The notes below the pieces were generated by a model. It had not been told where the DNA came from. It worked only from the letters and a program-made list of their open reading frames with translations, and searched no databases. Made by a program: the position numbers and the translations under genes. 64,000 nt of DNA, taken from the IMG/VR virus record IMGVR_UViG_3300029940_000031; one strand, 5' to 3'. Origin of the DNA: a virus. This document shows positions 1,896 through 9,932 of the stretch, piece by piece. Position 1 is the first letter of the stretch. Each line of letters opens with the position of its first letter.

Positions 1896-2531
1896 TTACT
1901 GGGCCTCTTGCTCACCTTTAGCTTTCATTTGTTTTTCATATACATATTTTGCTGTTGAAAAATCAGTAGGAAAATCACGTAGTGCCTTATTTATAATATT
2001 TAATTCTTCTTGCGACTTAATTTCAATGTTATTTAAATAGTCAAATGCTTTGGATTGTTTATTTGCAACATAATTTTGAGTAGAATAATCATCTGGGAAG
2101 TCTTTCTTAGCTTTTTCTTTAACCTTATTCATAGCTTCTGTTTTGTCGATGTTCTTTACTGGGTTCGCTAATGTTCCAGTAGTTTGTTCCGGTTTAGGTA
2201 CTTCTTTCTTTTCCGGTTGAGACTCCGGCTTTACGTCTTCTTTTTTAGGCTGTTCTTGTTCTTGCGGTTTAGGTGTTTCTTGACTCGGCTGTGTAGTTTG
2301 TTGAAGTGACCTAGTTTGCTCTTTTTCATAGGAGTCTACTTTAGATTTCAACTCTTTGATTTGTGTTTTTAATTCTTGCTGTTCATTAAAGTGTTGATCG
2401 ATAAGTTTATCCATATCTTTTTGTGAATACTTAGGTTTCATATCTTCTGATTTGGAATCTTTAAAAATAGCTACGGAAGCAATGATAGCTACTAGTACAG
2501 CGATAATTCCAATGATTAGTTTTTTGTTCAT
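1896..2531 (-). CDS. N-terminally anchored coiled-coil, Pro/Glu/Lys-rich surface protein with two C-terminal DFPxD(Y/F)ST..YV repeats
   Basis: RBS AGGAGG; TM IIGIIAVLVAIIASVAIF; low-complexity PKPQEQEQPKKE linker; internal repeats DFPDDYSTQNYV and DFPTDFSTAKYV. Confidence 0.8.
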   Translation of the reverse strand: MNKKLIIGIIAVLVAIIASVAIFKDSKSEDMKPKYSQKDMDKLIDQHFNEQQELKTQIKELKSKVDSYEKEQTRSLQQTTQPSQETPKPQEQEQPKKEDVKPESQPEKKEVPKPEQTTGTLANPVKNIDKTEAMNKVKEKAKKDFPDDYSTQNYVANKQSKAFDYLNNIEIKSQEELNIINKALRDFPTDFSTAKYVYEKQMKAKGEQEAQ

Positions 2532-2593
2532 TTATGTTCCTCCTAAAATACAATAATATTATTATATAACAATTAAATGATTGTAGGTAGAAA

Positions 2594-2641
2594 AAAAGAC
2601 ACCCAAAGGTGCCTTCCTCCGACTTGAACCATCTTAATTTT
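2594..2641 (-). repeat. Cassette 3' element, truncated copy (terminator half)
   Basis: AAAAGACACCCAAAGGTGCCTTCCTCCGACTTGAACCATCTTAATTT, then diverges. Confidence 0.75.
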
Positions 2642-2744
2642 GAAAAATGGCATTGAAGGAATTTCTTTATTTATAACTATATTAGGGATGTTAATAATGG
2701 TATTTTATAGTGATATGAAAAAATTAATTATTAATGAATTTAAA

Positions 2745-2796
2745 ATAAAAAGAAGACCGAACTAGAATAACAATCTAGTTCGGTCTTCTTTTTATT
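2745..2796. terminator. Bidirectional intrinsic terminator
   Basis: 16-bp stem AGAAGACCGAACTAGA / TCTAGTTCGGTCTTCT flanked by A- and T-runs; 3' of 2827..3120. Confidence 0.8.
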
Positions 2797-2826
2797 TGTT
2801 TACTTGGAAAACTTAATTAAAGTTTC

Positions 2827-3120
2827 TTAATTATTACTTGTTCGCCATCCTTCATAATGGCCTGTCCATGAATTTTTACTTACTTCAGTTGCTCCTTTTA
2901 AATACCAAGTCACTCCATCCCACTCTTTTACAGTAGGTATTTCCCCTTTTGATTTGTAACCAGGAAAGTCTTGTTTTTCTTTTTTCTTAACAAAACTTTT
3001 TTTATTATCAATCGTTTTTAATTTTACACCTGTATCAGTAGGTGTTTCCGCAAGTACTCCTCCAGCACCAGATAACATAATTCCAGTTGCTAATGTTCCA
3101 ATTATTACTTTCTTGAACAT
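2827..3120 (-). CDS. Small secreted protein (Sec signal peptide)
   Basis: RBS GGGGG; MFKKVIIGTLATGIMLSGAGGVLA signal, almost the same as that of 56283..56714. Confidence 0.75.
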   Translation of the reverse strand: MFKKVIIGTLATGIMLSGAGGVLAETPTDTGVKLKTIDNKKSFVKKKEKQDFPGYKSKGEIPTVKEWDGVTWYLKGATEVSKNSWTGHYEGWRTSNN

Positions 3121-3422
3121 GAAAAATCCCCCTTTTTTGGAATGAATATTACATAAATAACAATACCATATTATTTGTATTTTCTAACATTTGAATTTAT
3201 TTATAAATATTTAATTGAATATTCAAACTATACAATTAAAATGAAAAGATTTAAAAATAATTAGTTCTATTAGTAGTGAATCTCAAGTCAATGATTGGAA
3301 GAAAACTAAATTATTTATGGGGTAAGAAGTATAGAACTCAAACTTTTTTTTGAATTTATATTCAAAAGTTTACTTTCAAATTAGAAAAGGCTAGTCCCTC
3401 GATACCCTTTTTGGAAATAAAG

Positions 3423-3462
3423 AAAAGACACCCTAAGGCGCCTTCCTTCGACTTGAACCACC
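3423..3462 (-). repeat. Cassette 3' element, truncated copy
   Basis: AAAAGACACCCTAAGGCGCCTTCCTTCGACTTGAACCACC; no intact gene lies in front of it. Confidence 0.7.
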
Positions 3463-3927
3463 TCATATTAATGCAGTATAAATTAATAAAATAATTTATA
3501 TAAATATTTTGTTATACTTCCATGTCCCCTAGCTGATATAATGTATAAGGAAATTATTGGCTAATTAATAGTACATATATATTTGGTGTACTGCCAATAT
3601 CTTAACGAAAATACATACTAAGCAAGATTTGACATGAAAAAGCGTTGATTTTACTACTCTTAGCGATATCTCCAACAAATGCACTTTAATGTAAAAGATG
3701 CGCCTTCTCCAGTAATTATGGATGATATTTTACTGATTTTTATAAAGATGAATTATAAGAGGTTTACACTCTTATTTATAAGCATCTAATATTTTTGGAT
3801 ACACACACATTAGATAGATCTAAAAGGGCTGTTATAAACGAATATGAGAAGCCTTTTTAAAAGATATTTTCTGGTTTAATATTTTTATTAGAAATGAAAT
3901 GTTTGTTTTTTAAAGGGGGTAGCGATA

Positions 3928-5505
3928 TTGATAAGATTTATAATGCTTGATAATAAACAAAATGAATTTAATTTCAAAAATTATACAGATGAATTAATGC
4001 GTAAAGTTGAACAAACTTTAAATTTAACACACTTATCATTTAATCATACTGAGGAATCTAAACGTAGTTGTTCTCTAATCTTAGCTGAAAAAGAATATTT
4101 TGTTGACTTTAGCATTATGTTTAATCTGCTTGGGGCTGATCAACTAAGAGTAGATATTTCAACAAAAGAAAATACTGCTGTTGATAAGGATTTACATGAT
4201 TTGAAAATAATGTTGAAAGACCTAATGGTAGAAGAATGGATGCAATGTGTTTGGCTTGTAGATTATCAATCAGAAGAATTTGCTGAAGATCTATATAAAA
4301 ATATTCACTCTGTTGAAAATAGTTTACGACGTCTAATTAATGCTGTTTTATCTCATCATTTAGGAATTGAATGGTGGAGTTTCATGCCCACTCACTTAAC
4401 AAAAAAATATTCCCAAAGAATCAATGGTTATCGAGAGAAAGCACCAGGATTTAAAGATGTCTATGCAAATTTGTTATCCATTGATACTAGCGATTTGATT
4501 AGCATTCTAAAATTCAAGACATATAAGATAAAAAGTCAATCAATTTTTAACACACCTGACCCTTTTTCACCTGATTCATTGGTTCATAATCCAGCTCTTG
4601 TTCAATTTCAATATATTATGAGTGATATTATAAATAATGATAAATCAATAGAAGATCATAGAGCTGATTTGACTAAATTATTAGAGGAACAAATGGAAGT
4701 AGATATAGATTTTTGGGAAAGTTTTTTTTCTCCATTATTTTCTTGTACACTAAGGGAGTTTAGTGGGAAATGGGAGAATTTTAGTAAGGATAGGAATCAC
4801 GTAGCTCATAATAAGTTAATTGATGATAAGCTCTATCGAAAATTTAAGAGGGTTATGGATGATTTATTTGGGAAAATAACCGAAGCAGAGGAAAAGTTTG
4901 AGGAGGTTCTAAAAATAAAATCTGATGACTTCCTAGAATATATGAAGATGTACGAAGCTGAAAATCTTCATAGAGTCCAAATCGAATCTAGACAGGCCAT
5001 TGCAGAACAGGCAGGAATAGAGATTCTGAGTCAAGATCAAATCTTTTTCTTATTTCTAGAGCATGTTCATGAAACTTTTGGAAATATTAGCGATACAATT
5101 TACTATAGAACTGATATTGATGTGACTTATGATGAACCTGAAACATTAGAATCAGAAAAGATATTCGAGGTTAAAAATAATATTCTTGGAACAAGTATAC
5201 ATGTAGATGCGGATACACTAATAGACGAAGAAGTTGGATGCACTAGTACATTGAAACTATCAGTTTATTATAATGCTAATCTCAAGGAAAACTTTGAAAT
5301 TAGTTTTTTAAATGGTGAGGCAGAATATAATGATGATCAAGGTACTTATATGCCTAAAATAGCAGATGAGCTTGACGTTTCAGATTTAGAAAAAATAGAG
5401 AATTATATCTTTGGATTATTAGAAAAAGAGATGCCAGAGATTTCTGAGGATGATCTTGCTTCCTTTATTCGTGAAACTATAAAAAGAAATTCTGGAGATT
5501 TTTGA
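3928..5505 (+). CDS. HEPN-domain protein (predicted RNase) with unassigned N- and C-terminal regions
   Basis: TTG start 8 nt after GGGGG RBS; helix-1 ENSLRRLI (~aa 130) and DRNHVAHNK = R289-x4-H294, the Rx4H HEPN motif in its RNxxAH form (R codon at nt 4792-4794). Confidence 0.7.
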   Translation: MIRFIMLDNKQNEFNFKNYTDELMRKVEQTLNLTHLSFNHTEESKRSCSLILAEKEYFVDFSIMFNLLGADQLRVDISTKENTAVDKDLHDLKIMLKDLMVEEWMQCVWLVDYQSEEFAEDLYKNIHSVENSLRRLINAVLSHHLGIEWWSFMPTHLTKKYSQRINGYREKAPGFKDVYANLLSIDTSDLISILKFKTYKIKSQSIFNTPDPFSPDSLVHNPALVQFQYIMSDIINNDKSIEDHRADLTKLLEEQMEVDIDFWESFFSPLFSCTLREFSGKWENFSKDRNHVAHNKLIDDKLYRKFKRVMDDLFGKITEAEEKFEEVLKIKSDDFLEYMKMYEAENLHRVQIESRQAIAEQAGIEILSQDQIFFLFLEHVHETFGNISDTIYYRTDIDVTYDEPETLESEKIFEVKNNILGTSIHVDADTLIDEEVGCTSTLKLSVYYNANLKENFEISFLNGEAEYNDDQGTYMPKIADELDVSDLEKIENYIFGLLEKEMPEISEDDLASFIRETIKRNSGDF

Positions 5506-5617
5506 GAATAATCTTGCTTTGTTTGTGTGTGAAAGGTAGGGGGAATTAACTACTTTAAAATAACAGTTTTTAAAGTAGTTAATTTATGTTTAATAATATA
5601 TAGAAGGTGAGAACATA

Positions 5618-6448
5618 ATGAATTGCAACAATGGTAGTTTTACTAACTATGCCAAACAAGATAAAAGTGGGTGGTACTTGCTTGTATGGAATAAAGAAAC
5701 TAATAAAATCGAGAAAAATTTCGATTATAAAAATATACAGAAAATAAAAGGTGAGAATATCACTACAACAGCCTTAAATTATTTGAAAAAGGATGGGTTG
5801 TTTCATACTGTTGATACGAAAAATGTATTGAAATATGAGATAACTCTTCTTTTTTATCAAAAAAAGAAAGTCACAAGTCGCTATATCATGAAATATAAGG
5901 AAAAAATAAACGCTATAGATGGTTATTATGATGGATGGGAATATACAGTGAAAAATGAGAATGGAGTGTTTGGAACTTATGATAAAGATTATACTTTCTG
6001 GGAAGCACATAAAGTTCCGCTATCACTAACCTTATTTCAGATATTTTGCATATTATGCTTGTATATATTTCCAGAGCAAATAACTATTTTTATTAAAGAA
6101 ATAATGTATAAGGACTACAATTTGGAAACTTATGATAAATATTATAATTTGTTAAGTGGAGTAGTTGCTTTTGTACTGTTTATTGTAGCAATAATCAATT
6201 CTACTTTTACTATAATAATTAAAGATTTGATTAAGCTGCATTATTTAAAAGATAATCAAATAAGAATTATTTGGTCAATTGTTATTTTTGAAATGCCTGT
6301 CCTCATAGCTACACTCATAACAGCATGGAAAATAAGTCAGGTTGTAGGAGGAGCAACTTTTAACTCACTGTTAATCTTTAGTATTATATTTATGATTATG
6401 AAAACTGGATTTACATACTTCTTAGAAATAGAAAAAAGGCAGAAATAA
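5618..6448 (+). CDS. Membrane protein: soluble ~140-aa N-domain plus 4 TM helices
   Basis: RBS AAGGTGA; four hydrophobic helices in aa ~145-270; co-directional with 3928..5505 and shares its terminator. Confidence 0.75.
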   Translation: MNCNNGSFTNYAKQDKSGWYLLVWNKETNKIEKNFDYKNIQKIKGENITTTALNYLKKDGLFHTVDTKNVLKYEITLLFYQKKKVTSRYIMKYKEKINAIDGYYDGWEYTVKNENGVFGTYDKDYTFWEAHKVPLSLTLFQIFCILCLYIFPEQITIFIKEIMYKDYNLETYDKYYNLLSGVVAFVLFIVAIINSTFTIIIKDLIKLHYLKDNQIRIIWSIVIFEMPVLIATLITAWKISQVVGGATFNSLLIFSIIFMIMKTGFTYFLEIEKRQK

Positions 6449-6486
6449 TTAAAGGTAGTGTTTAGTGACAATAAAATTGTTTAAAA

Positions 6487-6524
6487 AGATGGTATGGAAT
6501 TTAGATTCTCATACCATCTTTTGT
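6487..6524 (+). terminator. Intrinsic terminator of the HEPN/TM pair
   Basis: AGATGGTATG ... CATACCATCT 10-bp stem followed by TTTTGTT. Confidence 0.85.
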
Positions 6525-6630
6525 TACTTCTCTGTATAATAAAAAATGAATATTTCAAGCTAACGAATTAGCAGTTTGCTATTTAATTTATATGAGTCGT
6601 GCATATTCTGCGGGGCTTTTTTTCATAAAG

Positions 6631-6719
6631 AAAAGACACCCAAAGGTGCCTTCCTCCGACTTGAACCACTTTAATTTTAATAATATGTTGGACGCCAATC
6701 CAAATATTATTTTACCATG
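6631..6719 (-). repeat. Cassette 3' element, full-length copy
   Basis: Begins 32 nt after the stop of 6751..7461. Confidence 0.85.
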
Positions 6720-6750
6720 TTAATAAATATTGGTCATTGAGAAATGACAG

Positions 6751-7461
6751 TTAGTGTTTTTTTACATCCGGTTTCTTTTGTTTTAAAAATGAAATTAGTA
6801 CGTATGCATTTTTAGAATCATCATAAGAAAAATGGCATATAACTTCTTCTGCGTAAAGGTCCCATTTAAAGGATTTACCTTTACCCCCGGATCCAGGGGC
6901 GCCATTACCTTTGTCTCCATCAAATGCAGCAACAACTTCATCATATGTCATGTACTGTTTCAATGAATTATATGACTTGAGTTTATCATAATAATTTTTA
7001 TTACCTTTAAACTCTTCGAGTTCCTTGATTTTATCGTTTAGTTCTTTTTCTTTTCTTGTGTTATCGGAAATAATTCTATCTACTTCTTCTTCGGAAAAAG
7101 TTTTACTTCCAGTTGTGGTATTCGCTCCTTGAATGTTTGGTGCTATCAATGCCATTCCAAAGAATAAGCTGATTGATACTAAAAATGTTAGACCAGTAAC
7201 AATAAAAGTCTTTTTAATAGGCTTTTTATTTATTAATTTAACAAGCGCAATAATAAAAGTAACGATGGTAACCAGTACGAATAAATAGAAAAACCATACT
7301 AATGTCTTAGTGAAAGAATAGGTAAGTATATCAGGATGATCGTATTCCAGTTCAGATACGATCGTGAATATGGTGAAAAATGTAATAACGAAAAATACTA
7401 TAATCCCCGTAATTATAGTTACCAGTGATTGTTTTCTTGTCAGGTTCATAAGTATCTTCAT
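6751..7461 (-). CDS. Polytopic membrane protein (about 4 TM) with coiled-coil and a C-terminal soluble domain
   Basis: Start moved to MKILMNL (ATG 7461) because GGAGTGA sits 5-6 nt upstream; the track ORF extends to 7485. Confidence 0.75.
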   Translation of the reverse strand: MKILMNLTRKQSLVTIITGIIVFFVITFFTIFTIVSELEYDHPDILTYSFTKTLVWFFYLFVLVTIVTFIIALVKLINKKPIKKTFIVTGLTFLVSISLFFGMALIAPNIQGANTTTGSKTFSEEEVDRIISDNTRKEKELNDKIKELEEFKGNKNYYDKLKSYNSLKQYMTYDEVVAAFDGDKGNGAPGSGGKGKSFKWDLYAEEVICHFSYDDSKNAYVLISFLKQKKPDVKKH

Positions 7462-7511
7462 CACTCCAAATGTAAGATTTCTCAACCAAGCATAACAAAT
7501 TCAGTTACAAC

Positions 7512-7533
7512 TATATTGTCAGATTATGTCGAA
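7512..7533 (-). promoter_or_regulatory. Shared upstream motif, copy 2
   Basis: Gene-sense TTCGACATAATCTGACAATATA, then TTGTTA-N18-TACATT, then RBS of 6751..7461. Confidence 0.6.
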
Positions 7534-7542
7534 AGGTAAGAA

Positions 7543-7633
7543 AAAAGACACCCTAAGGTGCCTTCCTCCGACTTGAACCATCTTAATTTTAATAATATGT
7601 ATTGGACGCCAATCCAAATGTTATTTTACCATG
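7543..7633 (-). repeat. Cassette 3' element, full-length copy
   Basis: Begins 44 nt after the stop of the FRG gene. Confidence 0.85.
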
Positions 7634-7677
7634 TTTAGTTGTTTCACACATTGAGAAATGTTATTCGAATCTATATT

Positions 7678-8847
7678 TTATTGAAATTTACTTGTTATGT
7701 ATTTCGCTATATTGTCATAATCTCCATAAATAAATTTACCATTAATCCCTATAAAATTAAGTTCATCAAGAATTTTTTCTTTATTGTTAATGACAACTAC
7801 TTTATCGGGCACAATTCTTTGTATACCTTCAATATAAGGATTATTTATAAATTGACCACTCTGAAGATAATTTTGATATATAAATAATCCTTGTTGGTTA
7901 CGTCCCCTTTCAAAAGTCAATATAGGAGCATATTTAAAATTAGGAAGTATATTTAACCATGCGTTCTTATTCCCTGGTCTGTAATGTATGCTATGTAATA
8001 CTTCTTGTAGATAGACAGTGTAGATGAATATTGTCCAAGAAGGATTTTGTATCTTTTCACTTAGGTTTTTAAATTTCTTTAATTCTAACAACTTCATACA
8101 AGGTTCAAAGAATGCCATTTCATATAGACCTTCATCGTAAGGAGGAAACTTATTTACATCTATGATTGGCATTTCTGATGATATAAAGAAAGATTCAATC
8201 TGTTCATGAAGATCAGCATTTTGTTTTTTTAAGCAATCATAAAATATTTCAGGATGTTCGGTTTCGAATCTTAAAAACGCACCATACATATCTAAGAATA
8301 TATCGTCATTATTAGATGCAAATATTTCTAATATATTCGCATCTTCAAATTTAGTTAAAATGTTTGTAATATCAATAAATTTATCTTTAAACAAATATAC
8401 GAATCCTCTTTCTTCATCTAGCTGTTCTTCATTTGTATCTTTCGGATTTTTATAATCTTGACACGCGAAATATAAGGCTACTAGGGGTGAGGTAGTTACA
8501 TCAATAAGGTTTGTTGGAATCCCATGATGTTGAGAAAAAGCCGAAAAATGAGTACGTTCATCAGGTGTTAATTTGTACCAAACTTCTTTTTTAAACTCTT
8601 TTTGCATATTAAGAAAGGTATTTGCGTTTTTAGTTCCTTGTTCTGATCTATAACCAGGGGGTGTTGTATTTCTTAATCCTGAAGAGAAAGTTTCATGATA
8701 ATTGGTTGGCTCTCCTCTAAATAAATAATTTGTAAATTCCCCACTAGAGAATAAATCTATATACTCAGCTAAGTTCTTTATTTTAGTTACAGCAGGTGTA
8801 TGAAGACCTGTTGTTTCACGGTGCAAATATTGATTTGTATTTGTCAT
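7678..8847 (-). CDS. FRG-domain protein
   Basis: Start set at MTNTNQY (ATG 8847, RBS GGAGGT); hallmark FTNYLFRGEPTNY plus HHGIPTNLIDVT, as in FRG-domain proteins. Confidence 0.75.
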   Translation of the reverse strand: MTNTNQYLHRETTGLHTPAVTKIKNLAEYIDLFSSGEFTNYLFRGEPTNYHETFSSGLRNTTPPGYRSEQGTKNANTFLNMQKEFKKEVWYKLTPDERTHFSAFSQHHGIPTNLIDVTTSPLVALYFACQDYKNPKDTNEEQLDEERGFVYLFKDKFIDITNILTKFEDANILEIFASNNDDIFLDMYGAFLRFETEHPEIFYDCLKKQNADLHEQIESFFISSEMPIIDVNKFPPYDEGLYEMAFFEPCMKLLELKKFKNLSEKIQNPSWTIFIYTVYLQEVLHSIHYRPGNKNAWLNILPNFKYAPILTFERGRNQQGLFIYQNYLQSGQFINNPYIEGIQRIVPDKVVVINNKEKILDELNFIGINGKFIYGDYDNIAKYITSKFQ

Positions 8848-8863
8848 GATAACCTCCAAAATC

Positions 8864-8891
8864 AAAATAATAAAAGCACTCTTCTGAGTGC
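8864..8891 (-). terminator. Terminator of the TM2 gene
   Basis: Minus strand GCACTC-AGAA-GAGTGC followed by TTTTATTATTTT. Confidence 0.75.
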
Positions 8892-8899
8892 CTAGACAA

Positions 8900-9235
8900 T
8901 TAATTCTTAGATAGATCCACACCGTCTGTTTTGTTTCCTAGTGTTGTAGCAGCAGGTTCATTTTGCATTGCCTTCAACATATTAGGATCAATATTAACTT
9001 GAACAGTGTTAACGTTATTTACATTGTTTGTTCCAGCAGTACGGGCCGCAAATAATGCATTCTTGTAATCCACACGTCCGCTTAATAAGAATAAATCAAT
9101 AAACCATAGAATCCCTAATCCTCCGCAAGTCAGAAGATTCAAGATACCCATGCCAATATCCCCAACATAAAATCTTCCTGCACCTAAGAATCCAAGGAAA
9201 ATATGTAATAAATACGCTATACCTTTAGATTTCAT
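8900..9235 (-). CDS. TM2-domain membrane protein
   Basis: GGAG-N8-ATG (M4 of the track ORF); GIAYLLHIFLGFLGAGRFYVGD...GLGILWFIDLF is the TM2-domain pattern. Confidence 0.8.
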   Translation of the reverse strand: MKSKGIAYLLHIFLGFLGAGRFYVGDIGMGILNLLTCGGLGILWFIDLFLLSGRVDYKNALFAARTAGTNNVNNVNTVQVNIDPNMLKAMQNEPAATTLGNKTDGVDLSKN

Positions 9236-9304
9236 CTTTTTCACTCCGTCCTAAAAATATAAAATGTAAGATTTCTAGAACATCATAACAGAAACAGTTA
9301 CAAC

Positions 9305-9368: not shown

Positions 9369-9932
9369 CTAATGTTTTTTACTAGATTTTTTATGTCCTT
9401 TATTTCGTTCACAAGCTACACCATCGCCATCACGATCTAAATGCGAAGCATAAGCTGGGCTATCTGGAGTTATATCATAGTAACCAGCATTATTTGCATC
9501 TGTACAGTTTGCAAAGTGAACTTTCTCTTGTTTAGGTGCAGCTTGTTGCTGAGGTGCTGTATTAGCTGCAGTTTTTTGTTGTTCCTGTTCTTTTGCTTGA
9601 GCTGCTTCTTGTTGTTTCTTTTGTTCTTCCTGTTGTCTTTGAGCCTCTTCTTGTTTGCGTTGTTCATCTAATCGCTTTTGTTCTTCAGCCTTTTTTTGTT
9701 CCTCAGCTTGCTTTTGCTCTTCAGCCTTTTTCTGTTCTTCTAACTTCTTTTGTTCCTCAGCTTGCTTTTGTTCTTCGGCCTTTTTCTGTTCTTCTATTTT
9801 CTTTTGTTCCTCTTCTTTTTTAGTTTCTTGTTTTGGTTCTTCTGATGTACTTGCTTTATCATTTGAACCACAAGCAGCCAATCCCATAAGTAACACGCTG
9901 CATGTTAAAGCCATTAATAATTTTTTGCTCAT
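9369..9932 (-). CDS. Lipoprotein with E/Q/K-rich tandem repeats and a C-terminal Excalibur Ca-binding domain
   Basis: Lipobox LMGLAAC; repeats EEQKKAEEQKQ; C-terminus HLDRDGDGVACE matches the Excalibur DxDxDGxxCE motif. Confidence 0.85.
   Translation of the reverse strand: MSKKLLMALTCSVLLMGLAACGSNDKASTSEEPKQETKKEEEQKKIEEQKKAEEQKQAEEQKKLEEQKKAEEQKQAEEQKKAEEQKRLDEQRKQEEAQRQQEEQKKQQEAAQAKEQEQQKTAANTAPQQQAAPKQEKVHFANCTDANNAGYYDITPDSPAYASHLDRDGDGVACERNKGHKKSSKKH

Follow-up and report, generated by a model that had tools for sequence, protein, structure and literature searches.

A 64,000-nucleotide (nt) stretch of viral DNA, IMG/VR record IMGVR_UViG_3300029940_000031 (the whole of which we call the window), carries two neighbouring genes, ORF1 and ORF2 (ORF, open reading frame), which alone lie on the plus strand amid an array of single-gene cassettes on the minus strand. 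The window is 99.9% identical to the Bacillus cereus plasmid pBCA2 (NZ_CP015728.1), and the coordinates of both genes agree with the RefSeq gene calls in that plasmid. With its genes for terminase, portal, tail, holin, endolysin, ParA, a replication-relaxation protein and AimR, the replicon is a pBCA2-like B. cereus phage-plasmid. An original prediction, made from the letters of the window, had taken the pair for a two-gene abortive-infection or defence module, with a HEPN protein and a membrane partner. Its description of the locus stands: all flanking ORFs are minus; ORF1 has 525 amino acids (aa), with ENSLRRLI at aa 130-137, DRNHVAHNK at aa 288-296 (R289-x4-H294) and an acidic C-terminal part (aa 301-525, isoelectric point 4.3, 52 D/E and 23 K/R); ORF2 has 276 aa, with a soluble N-terminal domain followed by four transmembrane helices, as judged from hydrophobicity and AlphaFold2 secondary structure; ORF2 is followed by a hairpin with a good fold (-23.7 kcal/mol over 6449-6540, z = -4.0); the setting is a phage-plasmid; and the pair matches no named system. 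Beyond these points we found a second hairpin between the two genes, a C-terminal truncation of ORF1, and that the pair is not conserved elsewhere. The reading we favour, with moderate confidence, is that ORF1 is a candidate stand-alone, infection-activated HEPN ribonuclease (RNase) that lacks the zinc ribbon of its family, and that ORF2 is an independent membrane-protein cassette.

The HEPN assignment of ORF1, part of the original prediction, holds up when the family is considered as a whole. Our alignment of 27 ORF1 relatives, with identities down to 30% (alignment A1), contains two invariant blocks. In the first, V-E130-N-x-L-R134-R-x-I-N138, residues E130, N131, L133, R134, I137 and N138 are invariant; the second, D-R289-N-H-V-A-H294-N-K-L, is invariant from R289 through L297 and includes, as R289-N-H-V-A-H294, the Rx4-6H motif of the HEPN superfamily with its polar residue after the R. 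Because these columns are invariant across 27 relatives down to 30% identity, the motifs are not a product of chance. Pfam family HEPN_Swt1 (PF18731) was matched by 21 of the 27 relatives at E < 0.01 (best E 1.1e-6) and was the sole family to recur among the matches. One half of this model aligns with the helix-1 ENxLR motif and the other with the RNxxxH motif, and matches among family members reach both halves: a distant member (locus L014) scores 29.7 bits against the cut-off of 27.5 bits, over profile positions 5-109 and with both motifs covered, and other relatives align to one half or the other. The match therefore extends to the ORF1 family by transitivity, and not to the window sequence taken alone. 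Unlike the Pfam model, the domain of the ORF1 family is split by an insert of ~50-100 residues and lies between large unassigned domains; in ORF1 the insert places the helix-1 motif and RNxxxH ~155 residues apart, an atypical form of a domain that normally has both within a total of ~115 residues. Profile and motif together are good evidence for a Swt1-like HEPN core in ORF1 that is split by an insert.

The AlphaFold2 model of ORF1 has a mean predicted local distance difference test score (pLDDT) of 84, and aa 113-300, the region of the HEPN core, is mostly helical in it at good confidence. The preceding alpha/beta domain is a possible sensor or regulatory domain, and the long helix modelled after the core (aa 300-362) may act as a coiled coil or dimerisation lever; a beta-rich acidic domain, with its modelled beta-rich part at aa ~395-483, closes the chain (coordinates of all features are given in Table 1). 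In Foldseek searches the model drew weak matches (E >= 0.0026) to small alpha/beta domains, among them AdoMetDC-like, CENP-N, KA1 and EagT6/SciW structures, which presumably stem from the two terminal domains. An internal duplication was considered and rejected, as hhalign found no similarity between the N-terminal and C-terminal domains.

ORF1 belongs to a family that spans the Bacillota. A word-seeded search returned 62 clusters of relatives at 90% identity, from Bacillaceae and Paenibacillaceae, and an exhaustive profile search returned 872 clusters at 50% identity (E <= 1e-3), 312 of them at E <= 1e-10. Most of the family's clusters are 560-600 aa long and match the entire profile, including a C-terminal zinc ribbon. 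For the genomic neighbourhood, we retrieved 40 genome loci from species-representative genomes with the two motifs as search patterns. Neighbours in these loci are variable and include no conserved partner. Gabija genes GajA/GajB lie directly upstream of the ORF1 relative in L004; four relatives (L007, L008, L010 and L015) sit in Tn7-like TnsC/TnsD cargo; and relatives elsewhere lie near Cas3 (L016), large STAND NTPases (L013 and L021), a McrB-like AAA_5-EVE protein and a Schlafen-like gene (L022), an AAA ATPase with an S8 peptidase (L024 and L038), a SoFic/PDC-S04 gene (L037) or serine recombinases (L026, and by clustering L020 and L032). The association of the family with defence is suggestive, not systematic. 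The family as a whole is large and uncharacterised, and its members, normally solitary, are probable HEPN defence proteins that would cut RNA. Separately, in genome bins of Lachnospiraceae and related groups (L020, L022, L025, L028 and L039), the gene after the distant ORF1 relative (~26% identity) lies on its strand and encodes a Schlafen AlbA_2/Fic-like_C protein of ~465-490 aa, which could be a clade-specific partner or reflect one shared island.

The original prediction proposed that co-occurrence of the two genes across genomes be checked, and it was here that the two-gene module broke down. By tblastn at E <= 0.01, all 40 ORF1-related loci lack a relative of ORF2 within 8 kb. Among PLSDB plasmids an ORF1 relative is present on 146 and an ORF2 relative on 4, with both on only 2 (pBCA2 and pBTHD521-3). 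The ORF1-bearing plasmids include many large plasmids of the B. cereus group, such as the 270-kb plasmid of B. cereus AH187, and pYGD83 carries an ORF1 homologue without ORF2. Conversely, ORF2 relatives occur without ORF1 in at least five lineages. These sequence comparisons indicate that the ORF1-ORF2 pair is a juxtaposition in one phage-plasmid lineage and not a conserved module.

Comparison with plasmids that carry ORF2 but not ORF1 allowed us to place the junctions of this juxtaposition at nucleotide level. In Bacillus thuringiensis plasmids (L046-L048) the equivalent of window 3708-3911 is 85% identical over 206 nt and abuts the ORF2 homologue, and the leader upstream of the ORF2 homologue in L043/44 is likewise homologous to window 3708-3915. 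The junction in ORF2-only loci reads GTTTTT(T)AAG|TAGTTA, with the leader joined to the equivalent of 5567-5617 (alignments A3 and A4). Since these loci fuse the leader to ORF2, window 3916-5575 is a 1660-nt indel flanked by 9-nt copies of TTTTTAAAG; it contains the ribosome-binding site of ORF1, ORF1 itself, the scar at its 3' end (see below), and the left arm and loop of the hairpin between the genes. In that hairpin the end of the ORF1 segment pairs with the resident leader, the right arm being present in ORF2-only loci too, and the structure may act as a partial terminator or as a site of processing. The leader-ORF2 fusion is found in two ORF2 lineages that are 50-57% identical to the window ORF2. 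Because the arrangement with ORF1 is found in the youngest lineage only, insertion of a promoterless ORF1 cassette into the ORF2 leader would be the more parsimonious direction, and repeated deletion between the TTTTTAAAG direct repeats the less parsimonious one. A later deletion is indicated in Bacillus dicomae (L054), whose ORF2 is the closest relative outside the lineage (87% aa identity): of the ORF1 segment only the equivalent of window 5436-5540 remains (~100 nt, from the 3' end of ORF1), the left arm of the hairpin is gone, and ORF2 is retained together with the hairpin that follows it, the homology reaching window 6596. The hairpin after ORF2 is a likely intrinsic terminator, and in the window ORF1 and ORF2 are probably transcribed together.

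The leader itself is presumed to be a promoter and 5' untranslated region. Compared with L046-48 it is better conserved (85%) than the ORF2 coding sequence (72-80%), which suggests a regulatory element within it, and it is predicted to fold modestly better than shuffled sequence does (z = -3.0). A promoter scan gave a hexamer count equal to that of shuffled sequence, so that no promoter could be assigned, and an Rfam search of 2500-8000 at a permissive threshold gave two sub-threshold chance matches, both outside the locus.

The typical C-terminus of the ORF1 family consists of ~60 residues with four CxxC pairs, a double zinc ribbon (A1), and the pairs keep their spacing even where identity falls to 25-30%. 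In full-length relatives the sequence ...MPEISEDDLASFVCEECRE... leads on into the ribbon; the window ORF1 reads ...MPEISEDDLASFIRETIKRNSGDF and stops. At this position lies a 58-nt tandem duplication, of which copy 1 encodes ...EMPEISEDDLASFIRET, where full-length relatives go on ...DDLASFVCEECRE..., and copy 2 is frameshifted and supplies the stop codon, yet still spells NNLALFVCER, the start of the lost ribbon. A 58-nt duplication and a deletion have thus removed the zinc ribbon. The homology of the ORF1 gene of pYGD83 stops at window 5447, and its protein of 511 aa (by ORF scan; the cluster representative has 509 aa) stops several codons before the window ORF1 does and has another tail, so that its truncation was an independent one. 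This second ribbon-less lineage comprises 25 member sequences of 504-509 aa in one cluster, and some distant relatives are likewise without the ribbon.

These truncations raise the question of whether the window ORF1 is a decaying, non-functional remnant, inactivated by loss of the ribbon and carried as a passenger in the ORF2 leader. In favour of decay are the frameshifting scar by which a ribbon present in most of the family has been deleted here, the wholesale deletion of the ORF1 body in B. dicomae, the pXO1-size Bacillus anthracis plasmids with only a split partial copy, and the description of pBCA2, placed among the 'group 7' plasmid prophages, as possibly degenerate (PMC8026635). The ratio of non-synonymous to synonymous substitution rates (dN/dS) between the window ORF1 and the pYGD83 copy, 0.45 overall, is fairly relaxed, but it is below 1 everywhere and lowest of four regions in the HEPN core (0.30), which argues that the gene is still under constraint. 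The 525-aa frame is also intact with every conserved HEPN residue retained, an identical protein is found on at least seven contigs, and the independently truncated lineage persists. We therefore regard the remnant as unlikely, and keep to the view of ORF1 as a candidate active enzyme without a ribbon. As an observation in its own right, B. anthracis and B. cereus plasmids of ~180-225 kb (PLSDB H64-H92) carry a partial ORF1 relative (aa 1-322, 42% identity), in two pieces in nearly all rows and annotated as one or two hypothetical proteins, which looks like a decayed copy of the family.

ORF2 comprises ~130 soluble residues followed by hydrophobic segments at aa ~133-155, 183-201, 217-237 and 245-268, and the secondary structure of its AlphaFold2 model is consistent with four helices. 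It matched nothing in Pfam, NCBIfam or PADLOC, and Foldseek searches of the model, whose mean pLDDT is 67, gave nothing meaningful in the PDB. ORF2 has few relatives (a family of 13 clusters at 90% identity) and evolves fast (dN/dS 0.39-0.70), and it lies among small membrane and secreted accessory genes. Relatives stand alone on the B. thuringiensis plasmids L046-48, follow a NERD-like 631-aa gene in L043/44, come behind Avs1a/Avs1b-like genes and DUF1643 in Tn7-like cargo (L045 and L058), and follow a 650-aa protein and a 51-aa gene in Priestia (L055 and L057). The NERD-like protein of L043 was examined as a possible ORF1 relative and rejected, BLASTP finding no similarity. The Priestia 650-aa protein has a C-terminal RNQIVH motif, and a relative 30% identical to it is named ApeA-like by UniRef; hhalign showed no relation between it and the ORF1 family, and its closer relatives have MmeI or AbiH downstream, not ORF2. 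The proposition that ORF2 recurrently pairs with HEPN proteins was rejected, given that the HEPN status of the Priestia protein consists of a motif and a UniRef name and that its relatives lack ORF2. The plasmid pBTHD521-3 (L063) differs from the window by one mismatch between 3000 and ~6000, diverges by ~10% over 6000-6600 and has no homology beyond 6700. This sharp shift places a recombination breakpoint inside ORF2, at the boundary of its soluble and membrane parts (~6000), and shows exchange of the membrane half between alleles, independently of ORF1. Overall, ORF2 is consistent with an independent accessory membrane protein, which may have a part in exclusion.

The module of the original prediction, in which the membrane protein would serve ORF1 as sensor, anchor or second effector in abortive infection or exclusion, has to be judged against this background. 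The two genes share a strand and one leader, are 113 nt apart and have a terminator after ORF2, so that co-transcription is likely, and the pair is intact in all contigs of the pBCA2-like lineage even though the right flank varies. ORF2 relatives also follow other nuclease-type or defence genes, as with the Priestia RNQIVH protein, the NERD-like protein and Avs1-like genes. Against a module stand the counts given above (0 of 40 loci, 2 of 146 plasmids), the B. dicomae locus in which ORF2 has outlasted ORF1, the shared leader, which in ORF2-only plasmids is fused straight to ORF2, with ORF1 as an indel relative to them, the MmeI and AbiH genes downstream of the Priestia protein's relatives, the strong hairpin between the two genes together with the independent exchange of the ORF2 membrane half, and the lack of any PADLOC match for ORF2. 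We consider such a module decidedly unlikely, and continue with ORF1 as a solitary protein beside an unrelated cassette.

We compared ORF1 with the known systems nearest to it. PADLOC was another check named in the original prediction, and its outcome was mixed: ORF2 had no match, so that the pair answers to no named or candidate system, and ORF1 had a partial one, to PDC-M34B (aa 120-166, E 3e-5, with relatives down to E 1e-8), no other PADLOC profile being matched by ORF1 at E <= 1. PDC-M34 is an untested multi-gene defence candidate that came from guilt-by-embedding (10.1101/2024.01.29.577857). Its B-component profile fits the first half of the ORF1 HEPN core, but PDC-M34B profiles have 147-192 positions and ORF1-family proteins 525-590 aa, and the PDC-M34A component was absent, by PADLOC, from ORF2 and four other ORFs of the first 12 kb. 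HEC-08 is a single-gene system with HEPN and C-terminal zinc-ribbon-like domains that needs H128 of its Rx4-6H motif (10.1101/2024.01.29.577857). Full-length members of the ORF1 family have a similar stand-alone layout of HEPN domain and C-terminal zinc ribbon, a likeness of architecture only; the HEPN domain of HEC-08 is N-terminal and of the DUF3644 type, whereas the ORF1 family has extra alpha/beta domains and the window ORF1 has no zinc ribbon. ORF1 matched neither Pfam DUF3644 nor the HEC-08 profile of PADLOC. In ApeA the HEPN domain is C-terminal, while in ORF1 it is central. No ApeA profile in PADLOC and no HEPN_Apea family in Pfam matched ORF1, although UniRef names some of its relatives 'Apea-like HEPN domain-containing protein'. 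The two are alike in being stand-alone HEPN defence proteins, candidate in the case of ORF1, with a large non-catalytic part that senses or may sense; ApeA is a single-protein HEPN anticodon nuclease switched on by deoxydinucleotides (10.64898/2026.01.26.701840). DARNA/PD-T7-3, a HEPN tRNA anticodon nuclease, is switched on by single-stranded DNA that the phage single-stranded DNA-binding protein presents; its HEPN dimers form the active sites and cut tRNA anticodon loops, and the cue is sensed by a separate domain (10.64898/2026.02.22.705581). What it shares with ORF1, in the latter case as a candidate, is that one protein with an Rx4H motif serves as a HEPN RNase of abortive infection; it differs in its N-terminal HEPN domain (aa 1-159), its all-helical Pds5-like C-terminal domain, its length of 456 aa and the lack of a sequence match to ORF1. 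By the tests made, ORF1 belongs to none of ApeA, HEC-08 and PDC-M34. We take it for a new ribbon-less variant in an uncharacterised family of stand-alone HEPN RNase defence candidates, whose class of mechanism would be a familiar one.

ORF1 might instead be an RNase without a role in defence, for instance a toxin for plasmid addiction, or an enzyme that processes RNA or acts in regulation for the mobile element itself. Swt1, after which the matching Pfam family is named, is an enzyme of RNA surveillance; ORF1 relatives are borne by many Bacillus plasmids, 108 of the 146 being typed as conjugative; and most neighbours of the family are not recognised defence genes. No small antitoxin-like gene or repeat RNA adjoins ORF1, though, and unlike type III toxin-antitoxin systems with an AbiF-like HEPN toxin it has no antitoxin RNA repeat array upstream and no Rfam match: the repeats found in 3100-6800 are a 13-nt AT-rich repeat (2.4 copies) and the 58-nt scar. 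The variable neighbours of the family, its presence in Tn7 cargo, the Gabija, Cas3 and STAND genes nearby, and a patchy distribution typical of defence genes also speak for immunity, and we hold a non-defence RNase to be very unlikely.

For ORF1 as a solitary defence enzyme the following course of events can be proposed. Expressed in the leader of ORF2 as a promoterless gene with its own ribosome-binding site, ORF1 would dimerise, so that two Rx4H motifs would form one composite RNase site, by analogy with ApeA, DARNA/PD-T7-3 and HEC-08. The site would stay inactive until the non-catalytic domains sensed a cue of infection; once activated, the enzyme would cleave RNA of the host, probably tRNA or mRNA, and the abortion of the infection would protect the host population of the phage-plasmid. 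ORF2, a four-helix membrane cassette with its own conserved leader and terminator, would not be a functional partner in this. From its context, a defence or exclusion role of the locus is plausible.

Several observations weigh against this proposal. First, the window ORF1 itself scores 20.6-21 bits (E 4-6e-4) with HEPN_Swt1, against the cut-off of 27.5 bits. Foldseek, which the original prediction had named as a check, brought up no HEPN structure for the whole-chain model in the PDB or BFVD and nothing at E <= 0.001, and the family profile found nothing below E 1.5 among PDB sequences. Second, motif conservation within the 40 loci is circular, as they were retrieved by the motifs; independent evidence of conservation comes from the word-seeded relatives, alignment A1 and the profile search, all of which stand apart from those loci. 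Third, no member of the family has been tested, and a literature search turned up no paper on it. Of ten further large neighbours of ORF1 relatives one had a PADLOC match, and a claim of strong enrichment in defence islands was dropped on account of the other nine. The ribbon, common to most of the family, is missing here, and its loss could have impaired the window ORF1. Additionally, ORF1 and ORF2 are very probably co-transcribed in the window, and the recurrence of ORF2 relatives beside nuclease-type and defence genes leaves room for a loose functional link. A broader version of that link, in which the ORF2 family is a portable membrane add-on, taken up time and again downstream of nuclease-type immune genes that are unrelated to one another and serving them all as second effector or sensor in a modular design of nuclease plus membrane protein, with the window HEPN protein, the Priestia RNxxxH protein, the NERD-like protein and the Avs1-like STAND system as its instances and the ORF1 family separately a new stand-alone HEPN immune sensor-effector, we find very doubtful.

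The main value of the analysis here is corrective, in that the pairing of a HEPN protein with a membrane protein is a lineage-specific juxtaposition and no system. If the ORF1 family is active in defence, it would add a widespread new family of stand-alone HEPN RNases to bacterial immunity, one that is common on B. cereus group plasmids and occurs also in Tn7 cargo and on a phage-plasmid. Its layout is distinctive in combining a split HEPN core with two unassigned alpha/beta domains, a long helix and a double zinc ribbon, and the natural ribbon-less variants are ready tools to probe what the ribbon does. The nucleotide-level junctions reveal how promoterless cassettes are stacked into the accessory arrays of Bacillus phage-plasmids.

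Table 1. Features of the ORF1-ORF2 locus and its surroundings, in window coordinates
Feature	Position	Strand	Description
Flanking ORFs, left	235-795, 1092-1610, 1896-2531, 2827-3120	-	
Terminator-like repeat, orphan	3423-3460	-	Left edge of the plus-strand block; no minus-strand gene upstream
Conserved non-coding leader	3708-3915	+	Upstream of ORF1; directly upstream of the ORF2 homologue in ORF2-only plasmids
Left direct repeat TTTTTAAAG, 9 nt	3907-3915	+	Sequence, alignment A4
ORF1	3928-5505	+	TTG start, 525 aa; Swt1-like HEPN core (profile and motif evidence), no C-terminal double zinc ribbon
ORF1 N-terminal alpha/beta domain	3928-4263	+	aa 1-112, AlphaFold2; dN/dS 0.59
ORF1 HEPN core	4264-4827	+	aa 113-300; helix 1 VENSLRRLIN, ~100-residue insert, DRNHVAHNKL helix
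Helix-1 motif E130-N131-x-L-R134-R-x-I-N138	4315-4341	+	Invariant in A1
R289-N-H-V-A-H294	4792-4809	+	Rx4H HEPN RNase catalytic motif; invariant in A1
Long single helix	4825-5013	+	aa 300-362, AlphaFold2
ORF1 C-terminal beta-rich acidic domain	5110-5442	+	aa ~395-505, AlphaFold2 and isoelectric point
58-nt tandem duplication, ORF1 3' scar	5423-5534	+	1.9 copies, Tandem Repeats Finder
Hairpin between ORF1 and ORF2	5544-5584	+	Perfect, 17 bp, AT-rich; 5500-5620 folds at -29.8 kcal/mol, z = -5.0
Right direct repeat TTTTTAAAG, 9 nt	5567-5575	+	Sequence, alignment A4
ORF2	5618-6448	+	276 aa; soluble beta-rich N-terminal domain and four transmembrane helices
Hairpin and U-tract after ORF2	6486-6526	+	Stem ~6486-6521, then UUUUGUU
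Terminator-like repeat, second copy	6631-6668	-	Right edge of the plus-strand block; lies downstream of the minus-strand gene at 6751-7485
Flanking ORFs, right	6751-7485, 7678-8922, 8900-9244, 9369-9932	-	

The plus-strand block is bounded by two copies of a repeat that recurs in the cassette array. This conserved element of 38-58 nt, AAAAGACACCCTAAGGTGCCTTCCTCCGACTTGAACCA..., is found in one orientation at 1781-1818, 2594-2631, 3423-3460, 6631-6668 and 7543-7580 (five copies in the window, with none expected by chance), and apart from the orphan at 3423 every copy sits just 3' of a cassette gene on the minus strand. The copies at 3423 and 6631 were called terminator-like on the minus strand by our scan. 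No Rfam family matched the element, and parts of it turn up in 201 plasmid and 7 phage records from Bacillus. A double role is possible, in termination and in the recombination that shuffles cassettes.

The stretch to the right of ORF2 is a variable hotspot, since sister plasmids carry replaced gene content there: in L049 and L051, ~3.5 kb to the right of ORF2, bPH_3, DUF4429/SHOCT and a DarT and Macro-domain pair that resembles DarTG have taken its place. In the window itself, 1.2 kb to the right of the locus, the minus-strand gene at 7678-8922 encodes an FRG-domain protein (Pfam FRG, E 5e-17; PADLOC PDC-S15, E 1.9e-31), a second defence candidate by its profile matches.

Two observations concern the relatives of ORF2 in other settings. 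In a Sporosarcina genome and a metagenomic contig (L045, 979-6828, where the block comes just after a Tn7-like TnsD, and L058, 692-6525), a conserved same-strand block consists of an Avs1a-like metallo-beta-lactamase, an Avs1b-like trypsin-NACHT protein, DUF1643 and, as the last gene, the ORF2 homologue. In Priestia loci L055, L057, L061 and L062, a protein of 645-655 aa with a C-terminal YRNQIVHNG has an ORF2 homologue, MmeI or AbiH downstream and, in L055 and L062, adjoins a Y-family polymerase/YolD pair; this protein, too, has the look of a HEPN candidate that stands alone in a hotspot.

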